41,963 bases of DNA from a virus. Its lineage: Duplodnaviria > Heunggongvirae > Uroviricota > Caudoviricetes. Shown here piece by piece: positions 1 to 41,266 of this stretch (position 1 is its first letter; every line of letters starts with the position of its first letter). A model generated the notes under the pieces. The model was not told the origin of the DNA. It saw only the letters and a program-made list of their open reading frames with translations, and did not search any database. Both the position numbers and the translations under genes were made by a program. The DNA lies in IMG/VR virus record IMGVR_UViG_2548876958_000014; one strand, 5' to 3'.

Positions 1-1719
1 ATGATTTTTAGGGATAGCTTGAGAGTATTACCTTATGGTCGAGTAGATAATGATTTCTTCCAGATAGAAGAAAGACGTTCATGGAATGCAGGGCGATATT
101 ATTGGTCTAATAGAAGGATTTTTGGTTATATTGGAATTACTCAATCCAGTAATAAAGAGCTGAAAGATAAGTCGGGGAGAGAGGGATTCATAAGAAACCA
201 GGCTGCAAGAGAACTGAAAACTATTATATCTAATTTGTTAACTGAACTTGCTGATAGATTTTTTGGTTCACGTTCTGATGACCGTAAAGAGCTTTTAGAA
301 CAAGTTAAGCGTGAAAAAGAGTTAAGAAAATCTGCTCAACAACAAGCTCGAAAATCAACACAAAAAAGTTTTTCAGAAGCTTTGAAGAATCAGACACCAG
401 TTCTTGATGCTTCCTTGGAGGCTGTTAAAAGGCTGAAAACTAAGCTTGATAAAACTGATGGTTCGTTAGATTTAAACTATCTTAAAATTATAGACAGTGA
501 TCTTACAAACTTAGATGCGTTGCGCAGTGAAATTAAAACGCCTATCAAACCTCCAAAACTTGGAATGTATGAAGAGAAATATAGAGACTACAGAGATAAA
601 TTTAATGAGTTCTCTGCGTATATTCTACAAATGAAGTTAGCAATTAATAAACTTGATTCTGAATTAAATAAACTTGAGCCTTCATTGTCAGCGAAAAATC
701 ACCTTGAAAAAAATCAAGGTATTATTAATTCTAAACTAACTAAGTTTAATAACACGATAGAGGAGAAGATACATTCTCTTTTAAAAAAATGGGCCGATGA
801 AATAAAGGTTGATCGAAGTGATTATTATGCTAAAACTATATCAGTTGTTGATTCAATAGATAATGATTCACAAATTGAAAATGTGTTTAATTTGCTCGAT
901 AGTTTATATGTTGAGTCAGTTGATACCCTAACTTTCAAATATCAATCAATAATAAAAGGTCTCGATAGATTATTTGAAGGTATAAACTTAGATTCAGCAT
1001 TCTCATTATCTGAAGAAGAACGCTCATATTTTGAAGAAAAAGCTAAAAGTTTAAACGCGCTTGCACAGTTAGGTATTAGTGTTGAGATAATATCTCATGA
1101 ACTTGAAGAAATGGATTCTATGGTAACCAGAGGACTAAACTCTCTTCCTACTTCTGTAAAAGAACACCCTGGTTTTTCATTGGCGTTAAATGCTCACAGA
1201 TCGCTTACTCAACAAATACGTTTCTTATCACCTTTGAAAATATCAGGTTATCAATCCAGGCAGAGAATAACTGGAAAAAATATCATGGATTATGTCCTGA
1301 AGTTCTTTGGGGAGCGTTTCGAACGGCAACGAATAACTATTGAATTTAGTGAAGAGTTTAAGCAAATCGCAATAACAGATATACCATCAAGGATCTATCC
1401 TGTTTTTACTAATATTATCAACAATGCAATGTATTGGGTCAGTCTGTCAAATAATAGGCTCATAAAGATTGGTTTTGTGAATTCTTTGGTTATCATAGCA
1501 AATTCTGGTCCGGCAATTGATACCGATGATATCCCGCGACTATTTGAACTATTTTATAGCAAAAGAGCAAATGGACATGGGGTAGGTCTGTATCTATGTC
1601 GAGAAAACCTTGCTGTTGCACATCATAAAATATGGTATTCAGAACCTGATGAAGGCGATAACTATTTAATAAAAGATGGCGCTAATTTTGTGATCCAGTT
1701 CAATGGAGTGGAGTTCTAA
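1..1719 (+). CDS. Histidine-kinase-like protein (DHp H-box plus HATPase_c/GHKL ATPase domain), 5' end truncated by window edge
   Basis: ORF open from base 1; H-box-like ISHELEEMDSM; C-terminal N-box-like NIINNAMYW, G1-like DTDDIP, G2-like GHGVGLYLCRE; coiled-coil-rich region before it; AT-rich codon usage. Confidence 0.55.
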   Translation: MIFRDSLRVLPYGRVDNDFFQIEERRSWNAGRYYWSNRRIFGYIGITQSSNKELKDKSGREGFIRNQAARELKTIISNLLTELADRFFGSRSDDRKELLEQVKREKELRKSAQQQARKSTQKSFSEALKNQTPVLDASLEAVKRLKTKLDKTDGSLDLNYLKIIDSDLTNLDALRSEIKTPIKPPKLGMYEEKYRDYRDKFNEFSAYILQMKLAINKLDSELNKLEPSLSAKNHLEKNQGIINSKLTKFNNTIEEKIHSLLKKWADEIKVDRSDYYAKTISVVDSIDNDSQIENVFNLLDSLYVESVDTLTFKYQSIIKGLDRLFEGINLDSAFSLSEEERSYFEEKAKSLNALAQLGISVEIISHELEEMDSMVTRGLNSLPTSVKEHPGFSLALNAHRSLTQQIRFLSPLKISGYQSRQRITGKNIMDYVLKFFGERFERQRITIEFSEEFKQIAITDIPSRIYPVFTNIINNAMYWVSLSNNRLIKIGFVNSLVIIANSGPAIDTDDIPRLFELFYSKRANGHGVGLYLCRENLAVAHHKIWYSEPDEGDNYLIKDGANFVIQFNGVEF

Positions 1720-1720
1720 T

Positions 1721-3469
1721 ATGACAGTGGCAAATTATAATTCTCTTGTCCAGAAAACTTTCTGCGAAAATGTAATTCGTTCCGTTGTCATGATTGATGA
1801 CGATTTTCTGACGTATTCTGAATCAATCAGGGCGTTGAATAACGAAGTTGATTTAGACTACAACAAAATTGACTCATCTAAACGAGCCGCTACTCTTGAG
1901 AGCTTTTTTCAATCTAAAAATATGATTTGTGATGTTGACAATGGTTCTGTTAATTTCGATGTGGATCGGATTAGAAAATCAGATCTTATTATTGTAGATT
2001 ATCATCTTGATAATAATGCACCTGATAAAACACTTAAACTATTACAAGATTTGAAAGACTCCGATCATTTAAATATGATTGTAATATATACTAGAGAGAA
2101 TTTAGAAACGGTTTGGATGCAGATATCATCGACTCTCAAAGGTGCTCTGGATATCAACAGCTTGATCATTGACTACGATAATGAAGATGTCCAAAGTTAT
2201 TGGGAAGACGTTGTATTACCGAACTTAAATGATAATGGTAATAAAGCTCTCACAAGAGATGAAACAATAGCCTATATTAAAGACAGTAAGCCTTGTAGAA
2301 GAATTAAAAGATTAATACATGATGATGCTGTGTTGGAGGATCAAAAGGATAAAAACTTCATTGCAAAAATGATTGCAGAATATGCTGTGTCTAGAAATGC
2401 AATTATTTCTAGCAACACATCTGGCAATGTCATTCGGGGTGATGAAAGCGGAGTAAAATGGATTCAATGTGGTAATATCTTTGTCTCCCTATTTCATAAG
2501 GTTCAAGATGATCATGAAAACGATGGAGATAGAATTTGGCAAACTCTCAATGATTCTCTCATTGAATGGAAACCATCTTATTATCAGTTAATAAAATCTG
2601 AAATTCAGAATGCAATCGAAGCTGAGGCTTTATCTTTTGTAAATCATTTGGCTAACGATCATTACGGTCAAGCTGCGTGGTTAAATGAGATATTAAAATC
2701 AGACTCGCCTGATATTAGATGTAGAAATATTGACTTTGTATTTGGTAATTTATCAGAAGAGCTTTATCAAAGACTTAAAAATAATAATACGCTGGATGAA
2801 TTTATCAAAAGTGTTTTTGATAGCTATTCAAATGAATACGCTAACAGCGGAGTTGCTGCATTGCTCCAATATTGCTCTTCAAAAATGGATCTGCCATCAA
2901 ATAATGATACTTATCACGAAATGTATCATGCTTTAAATATGAATTTGTCTTCAAAGAATTTTGAAGATGGTCATATTTCTACTGGCACTATTTTCTTTGA
3001 TACAGAGTCGAACAAATGGTATTTATGTGTATCTGCGGCATGTGATTTGGTTCCTACTCAGGGTAACGACCCTCACCATGTAAGATTAAGTCCGCACAGG
3101 CTCATTAAAGTTCTGGAGCTTTTTAACGCCAGTCAGAGTAAAGCATTGCCATTTGCTGAACATTCGAAATATATATATGTAATGCATAAAAATCAAAGAA
3201 AATATCTCTCTATTTTCGAAGGGGATAAAACGCTTCCTGTTGTTGATTATATGGTGGTGTTGAATCATGGAACAACAGTTGATGGCGAAGAAAAAAATAT
3301 TATTTCTGCCGTGTTTTTAAGTAATATGGATGGCAACGTGCAAAATGTTCCTGTCCGACTCAAACTTAAATCTCAACTGAGAACTGGTTATGCAGAAAGA
3401 TATCAGGCTATAGCGTCTCAGTATAGCTCAAGGATTGGTGTGGATTATGTATCAATGATGCTACCATAA
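1721..3469 (+). CDS. Receiver (REC)-like N-terminal domain protein with ~450-aa C-terminal domain of unknown function (possible effector)
   Basis: ATG at 1721 two bases after upstream stop (ORF track gives 1703); N-terminal VVMIDDD acidic pair, DLIIVDYHL candidate phospho-acceptor Asp, NMIVIYT beta4 Thr; rest unrecognised. Confidence 0.45.
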   Translation: MTVANYNSLVQKTFCENVIRSVVMIDDDFLTYSESIRALNNEVDLDYNKIDSSKRAATLESFFQSKNMICDVDNGSVNFDVDRIRKSDLIIVDYHLDNNAPDKTLKLLQDLKDSDHLNMIVIYTRENLETVWMQISSTLKGALDINSLIIDYDNEDVQSYWEDVVLPNLNDNGNKALTRDETIAYIKDSKPCRRIKRLIHDDAVLEDQKDKNFIAKMIAEYAVSRNAIISSNTSGNVIRGDESGVKWIQCGNIFVSLFHKVQDDHENDGDRIWQTLNDSLIEWKPSYYQLIKSEIQNAIEAEALSFVNHLANDHYGQAAWLNEILKSDSPDIRCRNIDFVFGNLSEELYQRLKNNNTLDEFIKSVFDSYSNEYANSGVAALLQYCSSKMDLPSNNDTYHEMYHALNMNLSSKNFEDGHISTGTIFFDTESNKWYLCVSAACDLVPTQGNDPHHVRLSPHRLIKVLELFNASQSKALPFAEHSKYIYVMHKNQRKYLSIFEGDKTLPVVDYMVVLNHGTTVDGEEKNIISAVFLSNMDGNVQNVPVRLKLKSQLRTGYAERYQAIASQYSSRIGVDYVSMMLP

Positions 3470-3540
3470 TTATTATATTTTAGGCGTGGTGATTTTTTTT
3501 TGCCATGCCTATTTTATATTTATCATCACAATGATGTTGT

Positions 3541-3957
3541 TTATTTTTGTTTAAGTCTTCTAAGCTTCATGCATTCTAATGAGAATAATAATAGAGTTGT
3601 GCTGTATATAAAGCCAGAGTTAGTTAATAACTTTAAATTTAATGCTTCAGGATTTTCACTGAGAAAGTGAAAGGCATAAACTAAGTATACAGCTAAAGTA
3701 GCCGTTCCAATTGTTGGTCCAATATCGCCTTGATCATGAGGTTCAAGGTTTACATTGAACTTGAAGATTAGCCATTCAAATCCCCAAGTAAAAAAAACAA
3801 CTAATATCATGGCTGCGAATAATTTCGCGATGTTATCTGCTGATGGATTCATCAGAACAGATTGTTTCTGAAAAAATTCACAAAGTGAGAGTCCGAAAAA
3901 AATAAAAAAAAGTGGTCTGGAACTAAATTTTTCAAAAACTTTGAATAGGGTTTCCAT
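3541..3957 (-). CDS. Small hydrophobic (probable inner-membrane) protein
   Basis: 138-aa ORF with several hydrophobic stretches (LFFIFFGLSLCEF, AAMILVVFFTWGFEWLIF, TATLAVYLVYAFHF); AT-rich; convergent with upstream gene. Confidence 0.4.
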   Translation of the reverse strand: METLFKVFEKFSSRPLFFIFFGLSLCEFFQKQSVLMNPSADNIAKLFAAMILVVFFTWGFEWLIFKFNVNLEPHDQGDIGPTIGTATLAVYLVYAFHFLSENPEALNLKLLTNSGFIYSTTLLLFSLECMKLRRLKQK

Positions 3958-3995
3958 TTTCTTTACCTTCAGGATTATATTAGCTATTCTGATAC

Positions 3996-5225
3996 TTAGG
4001 CTACCAGAGCATTTGATCTTTGAGCTTGAACGTAATCACTCCACCATTGCATCAAACTCTGTCGCTCTATCAGATATTCTGCACGATTGTATGCTGCGAT
4101 AATTTCATCTTTTTTCGAGTGGGCAAGCGCTGCCTCAAGAACTTCAGCTCTGAATTTACCAGACTCCTCTGCCGCTGTTCGTGCAATAGAACGCATACCG
4201 TGAGCTACAAGCTCGCCTCCGAACCCCATTCGGATGATAGCTGCGTTGGCTGTTTGTTCATGCATATGATTAAGAGGCGCTTTTATGCTGGGGAAAACCC
4301 ATTCTCTATGCCCACTTATTGATTTCATTAATTCAAGGATGCGCAAAGCTTCTTTACTCAAAGGAACTTTGTGAAGCTTTTTCATTTTCATGAAATCAGC
4401 AGGAATGTTCCAAATGCTGTTGGTTGTATCAATATCAGACCACCTTGCGCGAACGGCTTCACCCGGACGAACCCATGTCAACAATTGCCATTCAATTAGC
4501 ATACGTGTTTCCAACCGGATTGACGCATTCGTCAAAGATTCCATAAACCTTGGCAATTCGCTTGGGGGAAGGGCAGGCATATTTTGCTTTTTTGGTTTAC
4601 TGAATCTTTGACCAAGGTTGTCAGCCGGGTTGAACTCAATAAGTTCTTCAGTAGCTGCCCACCGGAAGATTTCATTCAGACGTGAAATGATACGGCGTAG
4701 AGTTTCCAATACGCCTCGTTGCTCAATAGGATCAAGGTGTTGTTTTAAGAGCTTAGGTCGGATCTCATTGATAGGGACATTACCCAGACCGGGAAAGACA
4801 TTTCTCTCTAAGCTGCGCCAGATGTCTGCTGCATGGTCTTGTGAGATACCTGATGTCTTTACCTTCTCATCTAACCATTTCCGCGCTACGGCTTGGAGAG
4901 TGTGCTCAGTAGCACTCTTTAATGCCTTCGCCTTATCGTTGTTATGGATTTGGGGATCAACACCATTTGCCAGAAAGGAGAGATATTCATCACGTAAGGC
5001 TCTGGCTCTTGCAAGGGTAAGGTGAGGATATGTCCCAAGGCTCATTTTGGTTCTTTTCTTGCTCACTGGTACTGCATACCTGAAATACCAATTTTTCTTG
5101 CCTCCTTTCGCCAAAGGAGCGATTCGTAGAATCAGACCATCACCGTCAAACAAGTTGATTTCTTTATCGGCTGGCTTGGTGCTTTTGATTTCAGTGTCAG
5201 TGAGCTTCTTAGCGATTTTTGCCAT
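3996..5225 (-). CDS. Tyrosine recombinase / integrase, P4-IntA type
   Basis: ORF 3996..5267; likely start MAKIAKKLTDTEIKS at 5225; N-terminal arm-binding region typical of P4/CP4-57 IntA-like integrases; C-terminal catalytic region with HxxR-like AHGMRSIARTAA and Tyr in AYNRAEY; 165 bp from ssrA 3' repeat. Confidence 0.85.
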   Translation of the reverse strand: MAKIAKKLTDTEIKSTKPADKEINLFDGDGLILRIAPLAKGGKKNWYFRYAVPVSKKRTKMSLGTYPHLTLARARALRDEYLSFLANGVDPQIHNNDKAKALKSATEHTLQAVARKWLDEKVKTSGISQDHAADIWRSLERNVFPGLGNVPINEIRPKLLKQHLDPIEQRGVLETLRRIISRLNEIFRWAATEELIEFNPADNLGQRFSKPKKQNMPALPPSELPRFMESLTNASIRLETRMLIEWQLLTWVRPGEAVRARWSDIDTTNSIWNIPADFMKMKKLHKVPLSKEALRILELMKSISGHREWVFPSIKAPLNHMHEQTANAAIIRMGFGGELVAHGMRSIARTAAEESGKFRAEVLEAALAHSKKDEIIAAYNRAEYLIERQSLMQWWSDYVQAQRSNALVA

Positions 5226-5388
5226 TTTGGGACCCTCGGTTTTTGGACCCTTCTGAGTGGGTCCCATTCAGGGTGCCATAACTCGTAGTTCTCAGCAATT
5301 CTCACTGGACGACAATAGACGTAAAAAAGCCCGCAGAGCTTGTGCTGTGTGGGCTTAGTAGACTTCATTGAACTTCAAACAACTAAAA

Positions 5389-5430
5389 AGTGGTGCTGGC
5401 GGGAGTTGAACCCGCGTCCGAAATTCCTAC
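5389..5430. repeat. Direct repeat of the ssrA 3' end (att core; junction between prophage and neighbouring island)
   Basis: 5394..5430 is identical to 40912..40948 (37 bp); preceding TGGTG also matches but the ssrA GAG is missing, so it is a non-functional 3' fragment of tmRNA. Confidence 0.85.
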
Positions 5431-5624
5431 ATACCATTTTTATTATGGTAAAAACAGTAGATTATGTTTGAAAACAATGTGTTAGTGTTATTTTGTATTT
5501 GCTCGTCTTACGCGTTTTTAATGCTCTGCCGCCAAAGTGCCGCCATTACATCAAGTATCTAGAATAAAATTAGTTAATAAATTACAATTAATATGTTAAT
5601 TGTTCTTGCATTCATAAGTGGGAC

Positions 5625-7361
5625 GTGATGAAAGAAAAAAAATTCGTTAGTGAGCTTTTCCTTGAAAATGGGCAGTTTATTTTAGTCGGTTTGACAGGTC
5701 GAACTGGTTCTGGTTGCACAACAACAGCTAATATTCTTGAAAACGAAAAAACAGTCTTCCCTGATGTAAGTAAATTACAGGGGTTTTACAAGGGATTGGA
5801 TGTCCATCGTTATAATATAGTTAAAAAATTCGCAGAAAATCACTGGGAAAATTTTTACTCAATTAAGGTGAGTGACCTAATCTCAGCGTATCTTCTGATG
5901 TTAACAGTTGAGGAAGCTTCTGAATTCATTCTATCATCTAATAAATCTATCAGTAAAGAGCATTTAGATATTGTATTAACTTTTGGTGTATTCTCAGATA
6001 ATCTCATTTTGACAAGATTTAAAAATGTAATTGAGAATTTGCTTGATCATAATAGTGAATTGAAGCTTGATGAAAAAACGATTAATAAATTTATATCAAT
6101 TTTGAAGTTAGTTAGAAAATTTACTAAAGAATTCAAAGCTGAACTAAATGAGATAAACTCAAATTTATATGTTTCAGCCTATCAGTTAGCAGGTAAGTCA
6201 ATTAGACGTCGTGGGCGTATTGAAGTCGATTTTGAAGATAAAGAGTTTATGCCTAAATCTGTTTTTCATTTGCCGGAAACTATTAATAGGGTTATTAAAT
6301 TAATAAGAAAAAGCAAAAGAGATAACGCATTAATTGTCATAGATGCTATTAGAAATCCATATGAGGCAAAATTTTTTAAGGATAGATATTCTGCATTTCA
6401 TTTAATGTCAATAAATGCCCCAGATGAACATCGAACAAACTATTTGCGGAAACTACATAAGTTTTCAGAAAAGCAGATAGAGGAAATAGATTCTGTAGAG
6501 TCAGGTAAAGGTGATAACTCTTACAAACATCTCACCAATCCAAATGTAACTAAATGTATTGAACTATCAGATATACACATTTTTAACCCAAAAAATGAAT
6601 TTGATAATGACAATATTTTAAAAGCACAATTAGCGTGGTACATCGCACTGATGAAGCATCCTGGTCTGATAACACCTACTGCAATGGAAAGGGTTATGCA
6701 AGTTGCGTATACGGTAAAATTAAACTCTGGCTGTATATCTAGACAGGTGGGAGCTGTAGTAACTGATGGTGATAATTCAATAAAATCAGTTGGTTGGAAT
6801 GATGTTGCCAACGGTCAGATTCCTTGCTCTATGAGATCTCTAGATGGCCTAATGAACGATTTTGATGAAAAAACGTACAGTCATTATGAGAGAAATAATA
6901 GTTCTTTCAGAATTAAAGCTAATGAGAAACTCTTAAATTTTAGGGCGATAGATAAAACTGGTGATATTTATAGAGGCAGGAACTTATCTTATTGTTTTAA
7001 AGATATACATAATGATCTTGATAAAGAGAAAAAAGGTAATCAAGTTCATACACGTGCATTACATGCTGAGGAAAACGCATTTTTGCAACTTGCAAAATAT
7101 GGTGGTATTGGCGTTCTGGGGGGGAAGTTGTATACAACTGCCAGTCCCTGTGAGTTGTGTGCGAAAAAAGCTTATCAGTTAGGTATATCTGAAATTGTAT
7201 TTATTGATCCCTACCCAGGTATAGCTCAAGACCATATTATTAATATAGGTAGTAAGCCACCAAAGTTAATACAATTTAGAGGCGCAATTGGGAAGTCATA
7301 TCACCGACTTTATGAGCAAATTATCCCGATAAAAGATGAGTTAGAATATCTCCTTGAGTAG
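5625..7361 (+). CDS. Fusion protein: N-terminal P-loop nucleotide-kinase-like domain + C-terminal cytidine/dCMP deaminase zinc-binding domain (resembles anti-phage dCTP deaminase architecture)
   Basis: N-terminal GLTGRTGSGCTTTANIL (CoaE/dNK-like P-loop with Cys where Lys is expected); C-terminal HAEENAF and SPCELCAKKA (H-A-E ... P-C-x-x-C deaminase zinc motifs); AT-rich; sits between att repeat and P2-type int. Confidence 0.6.
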   Translation: MMKEKKFVSELFLENGQFILVGLTGRTGSGCTTTANILENEKTVFPDVSKLQGFYKGLDVHRYNIVKKFAENHWENFYSIKVSDLISAYLLMLTVEEASEFILSSNKSISKEHLDIVLTFGVFSDNLILTRFKNVIENLLDHNSELKLDEKTINKFISILKLVRKFTKEFKAELNEINSNLYVSAYQLAGKSIRRRGRIEVDFEDKEFMPKSVFHLPETINRVIKLIRKSKRDNALIVIDAIRNPYEAKFFKDRYSAFHLMSINAPDEHRTNYLRKLHKFSEKQIEEIDSVESGKGDNSYKHLTNPNVTKCIELSDIHIFNPKNEFDNDNILKAQLAWYIALMKHPGLITPTAMERVMQVAYTVKLNSGCISRQVGAVVTDGDNSIKSVGWNDVANGQIPCSMRSLDGLMNDFDEKTYSHYERNNSSFRIKANEKLLNFRAIDKTGDIYRGRNLSYCFKDIHNDLDKEKKGNQVHTRALHAEENAFLQLAKYGGIGVLGGKLYTTASPCELCAKKAYQLGISEIVFIDPYPGIAQDHIINIGSKPPKLIQFRGAIGKSYHRLYEQIIPIKDELEYLLE

Positions 7362-7741: not shown

Positions 7742-8758
7742 CTATCTTAAGTTGCATAAAGGGTTTTTAGTTACCGCATCTTCAAGGTGATCGGGCGAAA
7801 AGTGGGCGTAAATCATCGTCATTTTTATATCGGCATGGCCCAGAATATCGCGCAGCACCAGTATGTTTCCGCCATTCATCATAAAATGGCTGGCGAATGT
7901 ATGACGTAGCACGTGAGTGCATTGGCCCTCTGGCAGCTCGATGCCAGCTCGCTTTACTGCTCGTTCAAAGGCTTTTCTGCACGGGGTGAATAGCTTCCCT
8001 CTGTTCTTGGGGAGTTCGTCATACAGATCTTGAGATATCGGCACGGTGCGGTTTTTCTTACCCTTCGTCTTGGTATAAGTGATGCGGTATTTAGATAACT
8101 GATGGCCCTGCAGGTTTTCAGCTTCACTCCAGCGTGCGCCGGTGGCCAGGCATATTTTTGCAATCAAAAGCAGACTGGGGTTTTGAGAATCAGCGCAGGC
8201 ATCTAGCAGACGTTTAATTTCTTCCGAGGTCAGGAACGCCAGTTCCCCCTCAGCGATTTTAAATGTTGGCAGCCCGGCGAGAGGATTTGGTGCTGACCAG
8301 TGGCCTAGTTTTTTCAATGTGCCGAAAACCGATGATAGGTTACGTTGCTCAAGATTCACCGTGCGTGGTTTTACTGGCGACATTAGTGTGCCGTCTTCGT
8401 TACGAACGTCACCTTTTAACCGTGCTTCGCGGTATTTCGTAAAGTCACCGGCTGTCAGTTCTGAGGCGATGGGGTCGCCTAGACCATTACAGATAATTCT
8501 AAGTTTCGCCATGAGGCGCTTGGGGTCTGCGAGTGTCTGACCATACAGGGAATACCAAAGCTCAATTAATTCTGATAGGCGTCGCCGATCATCCTTTTCA
8601 CCCAACCACGGTTTTTTATTCACTTCTTCCATTGTGAAGCTTTCAAAAGCAATGGCTTCGCCTTTCGTAGCAAATTGCTTACGCACGCGCTTACCATTGC
8701 GTCCATTGGGATAGCACTCACACAACCATTTTCCGTTCGGCTGTTTTCTGATGGTCAT
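7742..8758 (-). CDS. int: P2/186-type tyrosine integrase
   Basis: 338 aa, matching the ~337-aa P2/186 integrases; conserved stretches CLATGARWSEAE, KYRITYTKTKGKKNRTVPIS, VLRHTFASHFMMNGGNILVL, MTMIYAHF; followed by repressor gene in same orientation. Confidence 0.9.
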   Translation of the reverse strand: MTIRKQPNGKWLCECYPNGRNGKRVRKQFATKGEAIAFESFTMEEVNKKPWLGEKDDRRRLSELIELWYSLYGQTLADPKRLMAKLRIICNGLGDPIASELTAGDFTKYREARLKGDVRNEDGTLMSPVKPRTVNLEQRNLSSVFGTLKKLGHWSAPNPLAGLPTFKIAEGELAFLTSEEIKRLLDACADSQNPSLLLIAKICLATGARWSEAENLQGHQLSKYRITYTKTKGKKNRTVPISQDLYDELPKNRGKLFTPCRKAFERAVKRAGIELPEGQCTHVLRHTFASHFMMNGGNILVLRDILGHADIKMTMIYAHFSPDHLEDAVTKNPLCNLR

Positions 8759-8759
8759 A

Positions 8760-9392
8760 TCAAAGGCTCTTAATGATTTTCAGTGCGCGGCCTACTACCT
8801 CAATGTCATCTAGGCCACACTCAAACGATGAATCATCCTGATGCACTACTAATTTGTTTCCCGGAAGTCGAGTCAATTTAACAATGCTTTTTATCCCGTC
8901 AATATCGACTAACCACATACCATTTACTGGTGGTGTTTGGTTGCGATCTATTAAATAAGAATCACCAGAAGTAGTCACCAGCAGTAGGTTGCTTGAGTCT
9001 GAGGGGAGTATGCTGCTATCAATGATTGCTTTTCCAGCATCGACCAATAAACCACCTTTGAGAGTCGCCTTGTCAATTTCAGGAGATACTAGTTCAGAAA
9101 GAGGTACAACCTTGCTGGAGTTCACGGAGTTGATATTTTTTTTAGGTTCAATGTTTGGACCTGGCTCCCCCTGTCCGGTGGTTAGCCACAGTAAAGAAAC
9201 TCCTGTTTCCAAGGCGCACTGAATCACCCACTCTGCAGGAAAACTATCTCTTAAGTATCTGTTTGCCATGGTGCTTTTTGATGCGCCTAAGTGATCGCAA
9301 AGTTGCTGTCTGGACTTGAAATCATAGGCTGCCATTAGTCTATGGATAGCCTCTCTTCCCCCTGTATTCTCTCCAACCTTTATCTGTATCAT
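8760..9392 (-). CDS. cI: Phage CI-type immunity repressor (186-like)
   Basis: Sits between int and a divergent early operon; N-terminal HTH-like region (SRQQLCDHLGASKSTMANRYLR) and C-terminal domain as in 186 CI; start may be internal. Confidence 0.7.
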   Translation of the reverse strand: MIQIKVGENTGGREAIHRLMAAYDFKSRQQLCDHLGASKSTMANRYLRDSFPAEWVIQCALETGVSLLWLTTGQGEPGPNIEPKKNINSVNSSKVVPLSELVSPEIDKATLKGGLLVDAGKAIIDSSILPSDSSNLLLVTTSGDSYLIDRNQTPPVNGMWLVDIDGIKSIVKLTRLPGNKLVVHQDDSSFECGLDDIEVVGRALKIIKSL

Positions 9393-11337: not shown

Positions 11338-12191
11338 GCACCATCCTGAAATGGGCGGGAAATAAAACCGCCATTATGTCCGAACTGAAAAAACACCTTC
11401 CTGCTGGCCCGCGACTGGTTGAACCTTTCGCGGGTTCCTGTGCTGTGATGATGGAGACGGATTACCCCAGCTATCTTGTTGCGGATATTAATCCTGATTT
11501 AATCAACCTCTATAAAAAGGTTGCTGCTGATTGTGAGGCATTTATATCTCGTGCCAGAGCTTTATTTGAGGAAGCAAACAGGGAGGTGGCTTATTACAAC
11601 ATAAGGCAGGAGTTTAATTACTCCACTGAAATTACTGATTTCATGAAAGCGGTATATTTTCTGTATCTCAATCGTCATGGTTACCGTGGGTTATGTCGCT
11701 ATAACAAGAGCGGGTATTTCAACATTCCCTACGGTAATTATAAAAATCCGTATTTCCCTGAAAAAGAAATTCGCGCATTTGCAGAGAAAGCCCAGCGGGC
11801 AACGTTTATCTGCGCCAGCTTTGATGAAACGCTGGCGATGTTGAAGGCGGGGGATGTGGTGTATTGCGATCCGCCGTATGACGGCACGTTTTCCGGTTAT
11901 CACACTGACGGCTTCACTGAAGATGACCAGTATCACCTGGCATCCGTTCTTGAACATCGGTCATCAGAAGGACATCCGGTCATTGTTTCTAACAGTGACA
12001 CATCCCTGATCCGTTCGCTGTATCGCAATTTTACTCACCACTACATCAAGGCAAAACGCAGCATCGGCGTAGCAGCTGGTGAGAGTAAATCTGCAACAGA
12101 AATCATCGCTGTTTCTGGGGCGCGCTGCTGGGTGGGATTTGATCCTTCGCGTGGCGTGGATAGTTCTGCCGTGTACGGAGTGCGTGCATGA
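11334..12191 (+). CDS. DNA N6-adenine methyltransferase (Dam-like, orphan)
   Basis: ATG 11334; N-terminal KWAGNK and EPFAGS (SAM-binding) and catalytic DPPY motif; no cognate restriction gene seen. Confidence 0.75.
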
Positions 12192-14602
12192 GCCATGCTG
12201 ATATGAACAACTGCAGCGGCTTTAACGAGGCCGCCGCAGCATTCTCATGGAACAGCCCGAAAAAGGCTATTAACCCTTATCTGGACCCGGCGGAAGTTGC
12301 GCCGGTTTCTGCGCTTTCAAACCTGATCACTCTGTACGCTGCCGATAACGAGCAGGAACAACTGCGCCGTGAGGCACTGAGTGATCAGGTCTGGGAGCGT
12401 TATTTCTTTAATGAATCCCGTGATCCTGTCCAGCGCGAAATGGAGCAGGATAAGCTCATTAGCCGGGCAAAGCTGGCGCATGAGCAGCAGCGTTTTAATC
12501 CAGACATGGTCATTCTGGCAGACGTCAACGCCCAGCCTTCCCATATCAGCAAGCCGCTGATGCAACGTATTGAATACTTCAGCAGCCTGGGCAGGCCAAA
12601 GGCTTATTCCCGCTATTTGCGTGAGACGATTAAGCCATGTCTGGAACGACTGGAGCATGTACGCGAGAGTCAGCTATCCACTTCTTTTCGCTTTATGGCA
12701 AGCCATGAAGGGCTGGACGGCCTGCTGATCCTGCCTGAAATGAGTCAGGATCAGGTGAAACGCCTGTCCACCCTTGTTGCTGCGCATATGAGCATGTGTC
12801 TTGATGCAGCTTGTGGCGATTTGTATGCCACCGATGACGTTAAGCCAGAAGAAATCCGCAAAACATGGGAAAAGGTGGCAGCGGAAACCCTGCGTCTGGA
12901 TGTTATTCCGCCTGCGTTTGAGCAACTCCGTCGGAAAAGAAACCGCCGTAAACCCGTGCCCTATGAACTCATTCCGGGTTCGCTGGCGCGTATGTTGTGT
13001 GCCGACTGGTGGTATCGGAAATTATGGAAGATGCGTTGCGAATGGCGGGAAGAGCAGTTGCGTGCTGTCTGCCTGGTCAGCAAAAAAGCATCCCCCTATG
13101 TCAGCTATGAAGCCGTGATGCATAAACGTGAGCAGCGCCGTAAGTCGCTGGAGTTTTTTCGTTCTCATGAACTGGTGAACGAAGACGGCGACACGCTGGA
13201 TATGGAATATGTGGTAAACGCCAGCAGCAGCAACCCTGCGCATCGCCGCAATGAGATGATGGCCTGTGTTAAAGGTCTGGAGCTTATCGCGGAAATGCGC
13301 GGTGACTGCGCCGTTTTCTACACCATCACCTGTCCGTCACGTTTCCATTCCACGCTAAATAACGGCAGGCCCAACCCAACCTGGACAAATGCGACGGTAA
13401 GACAAAGCAGTGATTATCTGGTCGGCATGTTTGCTGCATTTCGTAAGGCGATGCACAAAGCCGGATTGCGGTGGTATGGCGTGCGGGTGGCTGAGCCGCA
13501 TCATGACGGTACAGTTCACTGGCACCTGTTGTGTTTTATGCGCAAAAAAGACCGCCGCGCCATCACTGCATTACTGCGTAAGTTTGCCATCCGTGAAGAC
13601 CGCGAGGAGCTGGGCAATAACACAGGGCCGCGCTTTAAGTCTGAGTTGATTAACCCGCGCAAAGGAACGCCGACAAGCTACATCGCGAAATACATTAGTA
13701 AGAACATTGACGGGCGTGGTCTGGCTGGCGAGATCAGCAAGGAAACGGGTAAATCCCTGCGTGATAACGCTGAATACGTTAATGCCTGGGCGTCTCTGCA
13801 TCGTGTTCAGCAATTCCGCTTCTTTGGCATTCCGGGGCGTCAGGCTTACCGTGAACTGCGATTGCTGGCTGGTCAGGCGGCAAGGCAACAGGGGGACAAA
13901 AAAGCAGGTGCGCCGGTACTGGATAACCCGCGCCTTGATGCAATCCTGGCTGCTGCTGATGCTGGTTGTTTTGCCACCTACATCATGAAGCAGGGCGGCG
14001 TACTGGTTCCCCGCAAATATCACCTGATCAGAACCGCTTATGAAATCAACGAAGAGCCGACCGCCTATGGCGATCACGGCATTCGTATTTATGGCATCTG
14101 GTCACCCATTGCAGAGGGCAAGATCTGCACTCATGCAGTGAAGTGGAAAATAGTTCGTAAGGCCGTTGACGTTCAGGAGGCGGCAGCCGACCAGGGCGCT
14201 TGCGCCCCTTGGACTCGTGGCAATAACTGTCCCCTTGCTGAAAATTTGAACCAACAAGGGAAAGACAAATTAGCTGATGGGGACTCCAGAACGGATATTA
14301 CCTGTATGAATGACAAGGAGTTGCACGATTACCTGCACAGTATGAGCAAAAAAGAGCGCCGGGAACTGGCTGCAAGGTTACGCCAGGTGAAACCGAAACG
14401 GCGTAAAGACTACAAACAGCGAATTACAGACCATCAGCGACTGCAGCTCGTGTATGAGCTGAGGTCCAGAGGATTTGATGGCAGCGAGAAAGAGGTCGAT
14501 TTACTCCTTCGCGGCGGCAGTATTCCGTCAGGAGCAGGCCTGCGTATCTTCTATCGGAACCAGCGTTTGCAGGAAGATGACAAGTGGCGGAACCTGTATT
14601 AA
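12188..14602 (+). CDS. A: Replication initiation protein gpA (rolling-circle HUH endonuclease)
   Basis: 804 aa; HUH-like [10 protein letters not shown] and Tyr-rich YIAKYISKN catalytic region; P2/186 gene A position. Confidence 0.85.
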
Positions 14603-15497: not shown

Positions 15498-16577
15498 GTG
15501 GCGTTATCAGATGCGTTAATTACAGTAAATCAAGCAGAACGGGGCGGTGAAAACGCGTTGAGAGGCTTTTCATATCAAGCCTCTTGGGGGATAAATTATT
15601 TACTTGAAAAACAAAAAGAAAAGGAGAAATATTTATTTCTATTTGAATATCATGACGATATTCTTGTATTGAATTCATCTGTTTCTCCGACTAGTGCTGA
15701 GTTTATCCAAGTTAAAACAAAAAAAGATGGTAAATGGACACTCGCAGCAATAGTGAACGCAACAAAAGCTAAACCTAAATCATTTGTTGCAAAACTATAT
15801 GACCATTTCTATCAATTCGTTGGTCACGAAATTTATATGGTTCTGTTATCGAATGCTGGATTCGATTTCTTAAATGATAATAACGAAAAAGGTAGTGATC
15901 TTAATAATGAGCATAAGGAAATTATAATTAGTAAGGTTCAAGAGCAGCTAAATACTAAAAAAGAAGTTCCTCTTGATAAAATAAAATTTAAAACATCTGA
16001 TCTTAGTTTGTTAGATCCTAACTCACATTTATACGGGAAAGTTGCAGTTTTTTTGAATTCTTACTTTGGGGATGATCATGGTATTAATTCAACAGCATTC
16101 ACTAAATTATTAATCAATAAGTGTAATGAGAAGGTTAGTGTTGCTTCTAGTGATATCAAAACTTTTGAAGATTTAGTACTAAAGAAAGGTATATCTTCAG
16201 AATTTGTAACTGATTTATTATCTGGACTCATTGCAAGCATAAAAATAACGCCAAAATGGGAACAGGTTTGTATGTTGCTTGGTACTTTCTCAGATCCTTA
16301 TGAGGGGATTAAATTACAATCAGTTTTTACACGCATATCAATAAAAGTGCTCAATGTCAATTCAATATACTATCTTTATTTTCTGGAATTTCAATCGGCT
16401 CTAAAGAGTATAGAGCATTATCGTGAGATACCTGTTCGAGACCTCTTCTTTACACTCGAAAAAACAATTGCAGCGGGGGACGGGGATTTCTCTTTATTAA
16501 ATCAAGAAGAGAAATTTATGATTGCTATATATGCAATTATAAAGTTGACTTTTGAGGATGTTTCTTATGAAGAATAA
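15498..16577 (+). CDS. Candidate defence effector: nuclease-like protein (possible PD-(D/E)xK / Cap4-like fold; LmuA-like)
   Basis: 359 aa, GTG start; N-terminal GFSYQ and acidic cluster EYHDDILV followed by EFIQVKTKK (D...(E/Q)xK-like); AT-rich; stop overlaps downstream start. Confidence 0.5.
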   Translation: MALSDALITVNQAERGGENALRGFSYQASWGINYLLEKQKEKEKYLFLFEYHDDILVLNSSVSPTSAEFIQVKTKKDGKWTLAAIVNATKAKPKSFVAKLYDHFYQFVGHEIYMVLLSNAGFDFLNDNNEKGSDLNNEHKEIIISKVQEQLNTKKEVPLDKIKFKTSDLSLLDPNSHLYGKVAVFLNSYFGDDHGINSTAFTKLLINKCNEKVSVASSDIKTFEDLVLKKGISSEFVTDLLSGLIASIKITPKWEQVCMLLGTFSDPYEGIKLQSVFTRISIKVLNVNSIYYLYFLEFQSALKSIEHYREIPVRDLFFTLEKTIAAGDGDFSLLNQEEKFMIAIYAIIKLTFEDVSYEE

Positions 16578-18225
16578 CGTTAAATTTAAAAATATAAAAA
16601 TACTCTCATTAAGAGACAGAAAAGCTTTTTCTTATGAGTTTTCAGAAGGGGTTAACTTCATATATGGTACAAATGATGTTGGTAAATCAAGCCTGATTAA
16701 AAGTCTTTATTACACATTAGGTGGAGATTTAAGGCTTGATGATGCTTGGAAATCAGATGATATAGTTACACTGGTGGAAATTAATAACGGGGAAAGTGAT
16801 TTTATTTTTTTGCGTTATAAAAAGATTATTGGTGTCTTTGATTTGAAGAATGATGATCTAGTCGTGTATAACACGATTTCATCATTAGCATCTCGTGTTT
16901 CAAATATATTTGGTTTTAAACTGGAATTACATAATAAATATACGGGTGCTACGACTCAGGCAAACCCTGCTTGTTTGTTTGCCCCATTCTTTATTGATCA
17001 GGATGAAGGATGGAAAGCGGTGATAAATTCTTTCGAAAACATGAGTATGTACTCAGAATGGCAAAAAAACATTCTTTACTATCACTCTGGAATTAAGCCA
17101 AAGGAATATTACACAGTTCAAGGGAAAATCAAAGAAGTTAAAGTTAAAATTTCAGAGTTAGATGGTTTTGTTAAGGTTCTAAAAAGAAGCAAAAGTAAGA
17201 TTGATGAATCTTTTGGTGTGGTTTTATTTGATGTTGATTTGGATTTTTATAAATCAAAGTTAGAACGTATATTAAATGAATATTCTAATTTGAATTTAGT
17301 TCAGACAGAATATAGATTGAATCTTTTGAGGTTATATTCTAGGAAGAATTTCCTTGAGAGTGAACTCAAAGAGATAACTGCGATTATTGATAATGAATTT
17401 GAGATTTCGAATTTTCGAGATGATAATGTTGCTTATTCAGTAAATGAATATAATTATATAAACCATAGAGATGAAATGCTCAAAAACATTGCTGTTCTTG
17501 CAGATGAGAAAAGCAAGATTGAGGAAAATATTCCTAAATTGAATCAAAAGCTAGAAGAGTCAAGGGCTGCTTCAGAGGCGTTGCAGGCGCTGATTTTAGA
17601 AACTCAATCGGAAATAACGCTTCATGATGTTATTAAATCTGCTGCATACCATGAAATTGAATCTACTTTTGTTTCACAGTTAGATGAGTTATTCGTTGAG
17701 ATTGGTCGAAAAGAAGGCGAGTTGACAGAATTACAAGAAGAATTAGAAGTATACAATGATAAGAAAAGAACTGTTAAAATAAATGACTGTTTCAAAGAGT
17801 ATTTCGCTAAAGCTCTTAAAGAGCTTGGTGTCGAAAATACAAAGGTAGGTGGCCTTAGTAGTTATAATAATATTACTAAGGGTAAGACTGGTAGTCGAGG
17901 TCCTCGAGGTATATTTGCATTTCACTACGCGCTACTTAGTGTTATGAAAAGCAACTCTTCAGTTGAGAATATGCCTATAGTAATAGACTCTCCAAAGCAA
18001 CAAGATTTGGATCCAGAGCATACGCATAAGCTTATAAAACTATGCTTGGATGGGTTTTCCCTTACAAATCAGATTATTATTGGCACTGTTGGTTATGAGA
18101 GTTTCATGGATGGTTTTAATAGCATCAAACTTGAAAATAAATATCATCTTTTAAATGATGAACATTATGATAATGTTTATTCTCAATTAATGCCATTGTT
18201 TGAACGGGTGATACTTTCAAGATGA
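16552..18225 (+). CDS. SMC/Rad50-like ABC ATPase with central coiled coil (LmuB-like)
   Basis: Walker A GTNDVGKSS; long heptad-rich middle; C-terminal PIVIDSPKQQDLD (Walker B / D-loop-like); possible starts 16552/16558/16567 overlap upstream gene. Confidence 0.55.
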   Translation: MRMFLMKNNVKFKNIKILSLRDRKAFSYEFSEGVNFIYGTNDVGKSSLIKSLYYTLGGDLRLDDAWKSDDIVTLVEINNGESDFIFLRYKKIIGVFDLKNDDLVVYNTISSLASRVSNIFGFKLELHNKYTGATTQANPACLFAPFFIDQDEGWKAVINSFENMSMYSEWQKNILYYHSGIKPKEYYTVQGKIKEVKVKISELDGFVKVLKRSKSKIDESFGVVLFDVDLDFYKSKLERILNEYSNLNLVQTEYRLNLLRLYSRKNFLESELKEITAIIDNEFEISNFRDDNVAYSVNEYNYINHRDEMLKNIAVLADEKSKIEENIPKLNQKLEESRAASEALQALILETQSEITLHDVIKSAAYHEIESTFVSQLDELFVEIGRKEGELTELQEELEVYNDKKRTVKINDCFKEYFAKALKELGVENTKVGGLSSYNNITKGKTGSRGPRGIFAFHYALLSVMKSNSSVENMPIVIDSPKQQDLDPEHTHKLIKLCLDGFSLTNQIIIGTVGYESFMDGFNSIKLENKYHLLNDEHYDNVYSQLMPLFERVILSR

Positions 18226-40297: not shown

Positions 40298-40780
40298 TTA
40301 TTCATCTGGGATCTCACCCGTTTCAAGAAAATGTATAAAGCCAGGCTCATCTATGATGATTGTGCCTTTCATCCTGGCTGCCGATACTTTTGATGGGCCT
40401 GCATTGTAACCGCAACAGAGCATCTGAAGGCTTTGGGTTACAGAGGTTCTTACCGTTAATCCTTGTTCATTCGCCTTATCAACCAATCTTTCTTTATCTG
40501 CTTTCTTAAATCCGGTGAAGCACACATCGAATGTATTTTTTTTCGGACCAGACTGCTTAGTGAGATGTGAGTAGTTTTCGGGGAGGAATGACGCGCATTC
40601 CTGAATGGCTTGTTCTGGTGAATCGTACTGTTTAAGAATGCGGTCTTTTCGGAAGGTTTTTATTCGATCGGTGTTCTTACAAATGCCCTGTATATGATTT
40701 TCGCTATAACTGATGCTCTGTATTGAGTGAACACCGATACGACCATTTGCATTGATGTAAACAAAGTGAAGTTCTTCCAT
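40298..40780 (-). CDS. Small two-domain protein: N-terminal WYL-like domain + C-terminal BRCT-like domain (prophage cargo)
   Basis: 160 aa; TFRKDRI matches the WYL hallmark (R-x-F-R-x-D-R-I); C-terminal FDVCFTGF ... GTIIIDEPGFIHFLE resembles a BRCT fold; lies between ogr and attR, where P2 has no gene. Confidence 0.45.
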   Translation of the reverse strand: MEELHFVYINANGRIGVHSIQSISYSENHIQGICKNTDRIKTFRKDRILKQYDSPEQAIQECASFLPENYSHLTKQSGPKKNTFDVCFTGFKKADKERLVDKANEQGLTVRTSVTQSLQMLCCGYNAGPSKVSAARMKGTIIIDEPGFIHFLETGEIPDE

Positions 40781-40903: not shown

Positions 40904-41266
40904 TGGTGGAGCTGGCGGGAGTTGAACCCGCGTCCGAAATTCCTACATCCTCGGTACTACATGCTTAGTCAGTCTTTACATTCGCTTGCCAGCTGCGGAC
41001 GGACACGCCACTAACAAACTAGCCTGATTAAGTTTTAACGCTTCAACCCCAGGCAGGGCTTCCACGCGATCTCTTTTGGGTTTGACCTCTCTTGATCCCC
41101 GTCCTAAGAGCGGAGGCTAGGGAGAGAGGGCTCTAAGCAGGTTATTAAGCTGCTAAAGCGTAGTTTTCGTCGTTTGCGACTATTTTTTGCGGCTTTTTAC
41201 GAGGCCAACCGCCCCTCGGCATGCACCTTGGGTTTCGCAAATCCCGTCGAATCCAGAATCAGCCCC
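40904..41266 (-). ncRNA. ssrA: tmRNA (SsrA), complete
   Basis: Reverse complement begins GGGGCTGATTCTGGATTCGACGGG and ends ...GGTTCAACTCCCGCCAGCTCCACCA; contains tag ORF GCAAACGACGAAAACTACGCTTTAGCAGCTTAA (ANDENYALAA); 363 nt. Confidence 0.95.

Follow-up and report, generated by a model that had tools for sequence, protein, structure and literature searches.

Pairs of genes encoding a HEF_HK kinase-like protein and a Response_reg_2 receiver protein (PF19191 and PF19192) have been described computationally as units resembling two-component systems (TCS) (Bellieny-Rabelo, Pretorius & Moleleki 2021, Genome Biol Evol, PMC8011034). The pair came to notice through its up-regulation in Pectobacterium infecting potato tubers. 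Linkage of the two genes was 91.6% across 644 regions, and restriction-modification genes, above all those for C5 methylases, Vsr and HNH_2 proteins, were present nearby in excess. The dominant kinase architecture (174/222) was HATPase_c_3 + HEF_HK + HATPase_c, with a minority 'group 2' that lacks the N-terminal HATPase_c_3. The authors, whose data set already included E. coli sequences, put forward a cytoplasmic system, akin to two-component systems, that would descend from paraMORC ATPases and possibly regulate restriction-modification. Here we analyse such a pair at the left end of a 41,963-nucleotide viral record (IMG/VR IMGVR_UViG_2548876958_000014), which we call the window: gene 1 (1-1719, + strand), coding for a kinase-like protein, and gene 2 (1721-3469, + strand), coding for a receiver protein. 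A preliminary description of this DNA treated the pair as an unrecognised module. It is in fact a member of the published, Pfam-defined family: the genes are likewise adjacent and co-oriented, the kinase is soluble and both Pfam models score above their cutoffs. The window copy is of the 'group 2' type, here through truncation by the insertion sequence (IS) IS3, which also took the methylase gene. The reading that we favour, and consider probable, is that the pair is the IS3-truncated remnant of a three-gene cassette, that the intact unit is restriction-modification-like with a His-Asp read-out, and that the window copy is most likely inert.

Positions 1-5432 of the window are 99.85% identical to E. 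coli 2014C-3307 (locus L001), where the 572-aa open reading frame (ORF) follows directly after IS3 (RefSeq). Longer homologs show what precedes this sequence elsewhere. Residues 420-991 of a 991-aa homolog align with gene 1 over its full length at 88% identity (BLASTP); this homolog comes from a different enterobacterial assembly (L002), where its gene occupies the same ssrA site. Residues 417-988 of 988-aa proteins from Salmonella (P0149), Klebsiella and Serratia are 99% identical to gene 1. Codon 1 of gene 1 is internal Met417 of the 988-aa protein. When the Salmonella protein was aligned to L001 by tblastn, residues 376-988 alone were recovered, from the IS3 terminal repeat on. This E. coli lineage has lost all that lay to the left of codon ∼ 376, namely the C5 methylase gene and the ATPase head together with the remainder of the island. 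No C5 methylase gene is present in window positions 1-5432, and in the E. coli genomes the sequence upstream is IS3, which joins the remnant to the ygaQ pseudogene (ygaQ'). The same junction was found in 483 of 5426 complete E. coli genomes. The two-gene remnant, with both ORFs uninterrupted and at least 99% identity, is present in 560 of them (∼ 10%), and an intact close allele in none. Strain 600468 has an overall layout like that of the window (dCTP deaminase gene, P2-like prophage), with IS3 upstream. Both ORFs stand where the preliminary description had placed them, and gene 1 is 5'-truncated as it had said; the cause, however, is IS3 in the genome and not the edge of the window.

The intact allele is carried on the same island by the Salmonella loci L009 and L010, the former being 98.9% identical to the window over positions 1-5432. 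Gene order in L009 is two recombinases, a relaxase, small ORFs, the C5 methylase, the 988-aa kinase-like protein, the 582-aa receiver protein, a 138-aa ORF and a P4-type integrase. The search upstream for further partners that had been suggested could thus be made through related genomes; it yielded the methylase in the intact alleles but only IS3 in the E. coli lineage. Compared with the intact Salmonella allele, gene 1 differs by 8 nt (5 nonsynonymous, 3 synonymous) and gene 2 by 11 nt (3 nonsynonymous, 8 synonymous); the comparison of gene 1 with L002 gives 69 nonsynonymous to 194 synonymous differences. With so few differences from the intact allele the remnant is too young for its intact ORFs to be a sign of selection.

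Entries of 572 aa named 'ATP-binding protein' or 'histidine kinase' that begin at the same internal Met exist for several species (P0163, P0169-P0175, P0179-P0182). In Salmonella Bareilly (L011, 3993-6983) the full 996-aa ORF is intact despite a 572-aa call, and the short entry is therefore an annotation artefact. Calls of this type may have spread from the truncated E. coli protein, which is abundant, and some of the published 'group 2' architectures may not be real. We also considered recurrent pseudogenisation to 572 aa in other species. This proved only partly true: the L011 case is the artefact just described, and Klebsiella pneumoniae L013 has a real frameshift (residue ∼ 304). A further occurrence is on a 5.6-kb contig (DAIPZW010000118.1, L014) labelled as part of a Bacteroidales metagenome-assembled genome (MAG). 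Its gene 2 product is 100% identical to that of the window and its kinase ORF is truncated too, at profile position ∼ 374; almost certainly it is E. coli DNA mis-binned into the Bacteroidales MAG.

The C5 methylase gene adjoins the pair in L002, L003 (Pantoea), L004, L005-7 (Acinetobacter), L008 and L009-13, where it either precedes the kinase gene directly and overlaps it or lies just past the receiver gene in convergent orientation. We surveyed 38 loci from one-genome-per-species contigs, scanning their ORFs with hidden Markov models (HMMs) built from our own family alignments. Of these, 31 had a full-length kinase gene, and in every one of the 31 a methylase gene was adjacent; they span Gamma-, Alpha- and Betaproteobacteria, Planctomycetota and Fimbriimonadales. 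A methylase was missing from only two survey loci, L014 (the E. coli type) and L039 (a Gemmatimonadetes MAG), both of which also lacked the 5' end of the kinase gene. In L039 (2869-4576) a DDE_5 transposase stands in place of the methylase and of the first ∼ 75 kinase residues, including ATP-binding motif I; this is a second, independent IS-associated loss. Given the 31 full-length loci, the real unit therefore consists of three genes in a restriction-modification-like layout. The intact cassette encodes a Dcm-type C5 methyltransferase, a soluble kinase-like protein of ∼ 990 aa and a receiver protein of ∼ 580 aa. The order within the ∼ 990-aa protein is a paraMORC GHKL ATPase head, a transducer segment, a coiled coil, the HEF_HK DHp domain and HATPase_c.

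Accessory neighbours of the cassette vary: Vsr (L035, L045), HNH (L031, L050) and SBD-HNH_2 (L004, L011) proteins were found. In the Acinetobacter loci the cassette is cargo of Tn7-like elements, with a helix-turn-helix (HTH) gene next to the methylase gene. Other relatives lie on relaxase-bearing mobilizable islands and on elements resembling integrative and conjugative elements (ICE), near restriction enzymes. The methylase of the intact allele matches only the generic type II (MTase_II), DruM and DrmMII models of PADLOC. E. coli SE15 carries a distant, intact version (L004; NC_013654, 4542611-4548686; 34% identity) with a methylase, a 989-aa kinase-like protein and a 607-aa receiver protein. 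Behind the cassette, on an ICE-like element, lies a gene for an SBD-HNH 'phosphorothioated DNA-binding restriction endonuclease', and the cassette occurs in 212 complete E. coli genomes.

Gene 1 (annotated as 'ATP-binding protein', WP_000577254) is the 572-aa remnant of a 988-aa paraMORC/histidine-kinase-like protein. Part of the transducer-like segment is retained (aa 1-66) and forms the most conserved stretch, followed by the coiled-coil linker and the DHp and CA domains. The N-terminal GHKL ATPase head (HATPase_c_3, paraMORC) is absent from the 572-aa ORF by Pfam and is present in the 988- to 991-aa relatives. The HEF_HK (DHp) domain comprises aa 356-414 (1066-1242, + strand; PF19191, E 1.2e-5, 26.1 bits against a cutoff of 24.1) and contains the H-box His366-Glu367 (1096-1101, with the His366 codon at 1096-1098) in the motif ISHELEE. 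The HATPase_c (CA) domain comprises aa 462-553 (1384-1659, + strand; PF02518, E 1.8e-11, 44.9 bits against a cutoff of 26.4), and its boxes are complete: N471, N474 and N475 (N box), G503, P504 and D507 (G1), F515 and F518 (F), and G525, G527 and G529 (G2). A 23-member alignment of the kinase family shows no variation in His366, Glu367 and E369 or in the N, G1, F and G2 boxes, and none in the GHKL head motifs among its full-length members. These results bear out the H-box and HATPase_c boxes that had been read from gene 1 by eye. Position H+4 is E370, neither T nor N, as noted for PF19191. No membrane or PAS/GAF-type sensor was detected by Pfam in either window protein or in 74 relatives. An AGGA motif lies 3 nt ahead of the ATG at window position 1.

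Gene 2 encodes a 582-aa protein (WP_000214990-type) consisting of a receiver and a family-specific C-terminal module. It is translationally coupled to gene 1, as the preliminary description had proposed for a soluble kinase-like gene and a receiver gene with a C-terminal domain: the gene 1 stop TAA (1717-1719) and the ATG at 1721, which is the RefSeq start, are separated by a 1-nt spacer, and GGAG is found 7 nt before the ATG. An alternative ATG at 1703, given in the ORF list, was rejected, as the N-termini of homologs give it no support. The two-gene unit is closed by a terminator-like hairpin (3481-3511, + strand; 12 pairs, then a T-run), which corresponds to L001 15481-15511. Promoter scans at the locus gave no signal above chance.

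The Response_reg_2 receiver fold occupies aa 19-283 (1775-2569, + strand; PF19192, E 4.8e-31, 108.7 bits against a cutoff of 27), and the AlphaFold2 model of the protein has a predicted local distance difference test (pLDDT) score of 85. The acidic pair Asp26/Asp27 (1796-1801), the phospho-acceptor Asp93 (1997-1999), Thr124 (2090-2092) and Lys260 (2498-2500) make up a complete five-residue catalytic set. Across 146 diverse homologs (median identity 24%), little or no variation is seen at Asp26, Asp88, Asp93, Thr124 and Lys260, or at Asp27 in the same motif as Asp26. The receiver motifs originally picked out, VVMIDDD, IIVDYHL and NMIVIYT, correspond to Asp26/Asp27, Asp93 and Thr124 and are upheld by PF19192 and by this conservation. 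The conserved Lys260 had been overlooked because a helical insertion of ∼ 105 residues (aa 141-246), between α4 and β5, precedes β5. Accordingly, the ∼ 450 aa C-terminus said to be devoid of motifs has to be divided: no known domain is found over its last ∼ 300 aa, but the remainder is the insertion inside the receiver, with Lys260 after it. Judged by sequence conservation, kinase core and receiver keep every residue needed for phosphotransfer.

The C-terminal module, aa 284-582 (2570-3466, + strand), consists of a helical part (287-410), a beta-rich part (411-565) and a conserved tail. Modelled separately, the last ∼ 300 aa gave a pLDDT of 86, with the helical and beta-rich parts and a terminal helix. 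Asn406, Gly422, Cys441 (3041-3043) and Arg571 (3431-3433) are invariant in the wide family, and Cys436, Gly573 and Asp575 nearly so; the conserved motifs are HALN, TTGT, W.CV.PACD.VP, QLR..YA.R and, at the extreme C-terminus, SRIGVD(F/Y). This last motif (aa 571-576, 3431-3448), which holds Arg571, Gly573 and Asp575, sits past the last helix in a low-confidence region of the model, an unusual place for catalytic residues, and may serve as a peptide for docking or autoinhibition. Searching 1.84 billion cluster representatives with a profile returned 1134 relatives of gene 2 at E ≤ 1e-3. Nearly all of the best 150 listed are 560-680 aa long and matched over their full length, and receiver and C-terminal module therefore form a fixed unit. 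The common 453-aa 'partial' entries (P0008; residues 1-453, labelled partial by NCBI) are taken for assembly fragments and not for a second truncation.

Residues 284-582 matched no Pfam, NCBIfam or PADLOC model, and Pfam gave nothing consistent for the module across 74 members of the gene 2 family. Foldseek found no significant match in the PDB; a profile search of PDB sequences produced a single spurious one (E 0.3). The search of the gene 2 C-terminus by HMM and structure that had been proposed at the outset thus matched no standard output domain. No DNA-binding domain (HTH, winged helix, LytTR etc.) was found by Pfam in the 74 members or by fold search. A PD-(D/E)xK, HNH or HEPN nuclease was considered and rejected, as no such motif is conserved and the invariant residues are N406, G422, C441 and R571. 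The module may resemble the fold of the MazF/Kid/CcdB toxins, a possibility that we treat as a lead only: sequence identity is 5-12%, the hhalign probability against a 27-sequence MazF profile is 0.08%, none of the 74 members has a PemK or CcdB Pfam match, and the catalytic Arg/Thr pattern of MazF was not found.

Among described systems, the paraMORC/MORC operons (Iyer, Abhiman & Aravind 2008, PMC2292703) share with the full-length relatives the GHKL head, intact ATP motifs and the transducer segment, as well as a linkage to genes for Dcm-type methylases, Vsr and HNH proteins. The paraMORC1-5 families have helicase partners, or nuclease or TIR-like C-termini (PMC2292703). None is described with a DHp + CA kinase module or a receiver partner, the word 'receiver' occurring nowhere in that paper, and in the window copy the head itself is deleted. 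The C-terminal module of the receiver protein was not part of the analysis in PMC8011034.

The preliminary description had compared the layout with Detocs, in which a TPR-sensor kinase (DtcA), a stand-alone receiver that acts as a 'buffer' (DtcB) and a receiver-effector (DtcC), mostly a PNP (ATP nucleosidase), make up the system (Rousset et al. 2023, bioRxiv 10.1101/2023.01.24.525353). The likeness is one of logic only: a cytoplasmic sensor kinase is paired with a response regulator that has a non-transcriptional effector instead of a DNA-binding output, and the genes are on mobile or defence loci. Neither the window pair nor the loci of its relatives contain a stand-alone receiver gene; no TPR was found by Pfam, no PNP or listed alternative effector by Pfam or fold search, and there is no detectable sequence relationship. 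Detocs has no methylase, whereas the HEF_HK/Response_reg_2 system has an epigenetic self-marking component. Membership of Detocs is ruled out by these absences and by the lack of a PADLOC match. Nor is the missing partner an Hpt protein, for which the preliminary description had seen no gene between the two: the missing parts are the C5 DNA methyltransferase and the paraMORC ATPase head, and the Detocs buffer is itself a receiver, not an Hpt. A predicted HATPase/REC system (DefensePredictor, Fig. 6F, PMC13092281) was not used as evidence, as the text indicates a purine-phosphorylase (Detocs-like) system.

The H-box, the N, G1, F and G2 boxes and the receiver quintet on a (βα)5 fold are those of a canonical TCS. 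The differences are that no standard output domain is present here and that the sensor position is filled by a GHKL ATPase in the full-length relatives. A methyltransferase tied to ATPase partners, without a classical restriction endonuclease and on mobile islands, is also seen in BREX, DISARM, Druantia III and others. The likeness to these systems lies in the methyltransferase-ATPase linkage on mobile islands; the proteins are wholly different, and to our knowledge none of the systems uses His-Asp phosphotransfer.

A working model for the intact cassette can be proposed. The methylase would mark host DNA as self. The MORC-like head, which in characterised relatives is a DNA-clamping ATPase (PMC2292703, and general knowledge), would take the sensor position of the kinase and respond to DNA without the mark or to a different sign of infection. 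Head dimerisation driven by ATP would turn on autophosphorylation of His366, the phosphate would move to Asp93 of the receiver, and the C-terminal effector, once freed, would stop the invader or the infected cell. Since HEF_HK lacks the phosphatase-linked Thr/Asn at H+4, a one-way trigger fits better than a reversible regulator. Because a phosphorylated effector could diffuse off the triggering DNA, a global (abortive or toxic) output might perhaps be more natural than site-specific cleavage. That both methylase-less loci also lack the ATPase head is as expected if an unprotected genome activates the sensor. The mobile and defence context of the relatives makes a defence role of the family plausible. 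We suggest more tentatively that the intact cassette is a new class of immunity, in which Dcm-type self-marking is read by a MORC-like clamp-kinase and a diffusible His-Asp signal triggers an undescribed effector and an abortive or toxic response. If this is true, the E. coli and Gemmatimonadetes remnants would be natural evidence that loss of the methylase is tolerated only with loss of the ATPase head. The window copy, having neither sensor head nor methylase, is therefore not expected to function in defence, and a phage-resistance test of this strain's cassette would probably yield nothing. The idea of a defence module, put forward in the preliminary description, thus stays plausible through the mobile and restriction context of the relatives, but this copy is a decayed remnant.

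Several points weigh against the reading of the pair as an inert remnant of an immune cassette. The window begins 122 nt downstream of the IS3 junction, which lies outside it; we therefore infer the junction in the source strain, strongly, from the 99.85%-identical genomes and from strain 600468. The link between methylase loss and head loss consists of two events (n = 2). Gene 1 and gene 2 gave noise only in PADLOC-DB v2.0.0 (2023), with E values of at least 0.0025, and the full-length 988-aa kinase-like protein had no PADLOC match either. No experimental test of any HEF_HK/Response_reg_2 member was found in the searchable literature. Finally, ∼ 10% of complete E. coli genomes carry the two remnant ORFs in intact form, and residual function is possible.

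This last point leads to the alternative that the two-gene remnant still works. A headless kinase core, made from the internal start and possibly through read-out from IS3, would hold the receiver-effector in one phosphorylation state, and the two genes would then act as a self-contained toxin/antidote-like or sensor-less defence pair, hence the intact ORFs; we regard this as unlikely. The AGGA and GGAG motifs ahead of the two start codons and the uninterrupted, at least 99% identical ORFs in the 560 genomes would suit such a pair, and the changes in gene 2 are mostly synonymous (8 against 3). The remnant is so young, however, that intact ORFs need no selection, and the 5 nonsynonymous to 3 synonymous changes in gene 1, against 69 to 194 for L002, hint at relaxed constraint; the promoter scan was not above chance. 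Three independent disruptions (IS3 in E. coli, the IS in Gemmatimonadetes and the K. pneumoniae frameshift at residue ∼ 304) all fall in the 5' half and leave DHp-CA and gene 2 untouched, but three are too few to establish a bias.

Similarly improbable, in our judgement, is a regulatory TCS rather than an immune pathway, in which the kinase senses nucleotide or DNA status and the receiver protein controls neighbouring methylase or restriction genes. This is what the authors of PMC8011034 proposed, and their Pectobacterium up-regulation in infected potato tubers and the HTH gene beside the methylase in the Acinetobacter loci are in keeping with it. Set against it are the failure to find a DNA-binding domain in the 74 members or by fold search and the invariant Cys, Asn, Arg and Asp of the C-terminal module, residues that one would sooner expect in an active site or interaction motif. 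In most loci, moreover, the methylase is the sole neighbour left to regulate, a classical restriction enzyme being usually absent, and the phosphatase residue at H+4 that a reversible regulator would have is missing. An ordinary E. coli housekeeping TCS lying near ssrA by chance is effectively refuted by distribution and domain content. The matches that might speak for it, weak and partial NCBIfam hits of the gene 1 CA domain to the AtoS, DcuS and PhoR kinases, are far under their cutoffs (for example 36 against 646 bits) and cover the ATP-binding domain alone. The pair is found in ∼ 10% of E. coli genomes, at ∼ 34% GC on an integrase-bounded island that is 99% identical in Salmonella, Klebsiella and Serratia, and it has neither a membrane sensor nor a DNA-binding output. 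No periplasmic sensor, DNA-binding response regulator or standard output domain came to light that would speak for a conventional system.

The surroundings of the pair confirm the earlier view of an AT-rich pair on a horizontally acquired, integrase-bearing island at ssrA, outside any housekeeping context. The GC content is 33.6% for gene 1 and 34.2% for gene 2, compared with 48.2% for the window. Next to the cassette lies a 138-aa hypothetical ORF (3541-3957, - strand) that looks hydrophobic and has no Pfam or PADLOC match. It is kept in this island lineage and missing from more distant loci, and is therefore island cargo and not a core part of the system. It is followed by the P4-type tyrosine integrase of the ssrA island (3996-5267, - strand; an ORF call), whose homologs in L002 and L009 have Arm-DNA-bind_3, Phage_int_M and Phage_integrase domains. 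A 43-bp direct repeat of the ssrA 3' end (5390-5432), a copy of 40906-40948, marks the former attachment (att) junction of the island, and identity of the window with L001 and L009 ends at 5432. The intact ssrA (40904-41266) is 35 kb from this repeat because a P2-like prophage later inserted between them.

The P2-like prophage (7742-40800) sits in ssrA and displaces the older island. Its integrase (7742-8758) and CI-like repressor (8760-9392) genes are followed by an ORF of the size of a replication endonuclease (12188-14602), and the structural genes are further downstream. A gene for an anti-phage dCTP deaminase (5625-7361, + strand; PADLOC dCTPase, E 1e-145; NCBIfam NF041025, 425 bits against a cutoff of 400) lies between the old att remnant and the prophage integrase, and is therefore probably cargo of the prophage end. 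Inside the prophage, just ahead of the capsid and portal genes and in a tin/old-type cargo position, is a Lamassu pair, LmuA (15498-16577, + strand; PADLOC 4e-143; Pfam Cap4_nuclease) and LmuB (16552-18225, + strand; PADLOC 6e-253). A 160-aa ORF beside ssrA (40298-40780, - strand) has a weak BRCT match (Pfam, E 0.0011) and is a weak PADLOC candidate, PDC-S48 (E 1.8e-7).

On its own the window locus matters little, being a decayed member of a family for which Pfam models and a descriptive paper exist already. Its main practical value is as a warning: a headless 572-aa 'ATP-binding protein' is encoded in ∼ 10% of E. coli genomes. For the family, our survey turns the published association, 'often near methylases', into a tighter one, in which methylase, MORC-kinase and receiver-effector make up an obligate three-gene unit. 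This unit is represented by at least 1134 sequence clusters in several phyla and has an effector domain that matches nothing known. The intact three-gene family is an attractive candidate immune system, and the SE15-type cassette, intact in 212 complete E. coli genomes, is a ready native test system. If the unit does act in immunity, it would join MORC ATPases reading DNA methylation with two-component signalling.

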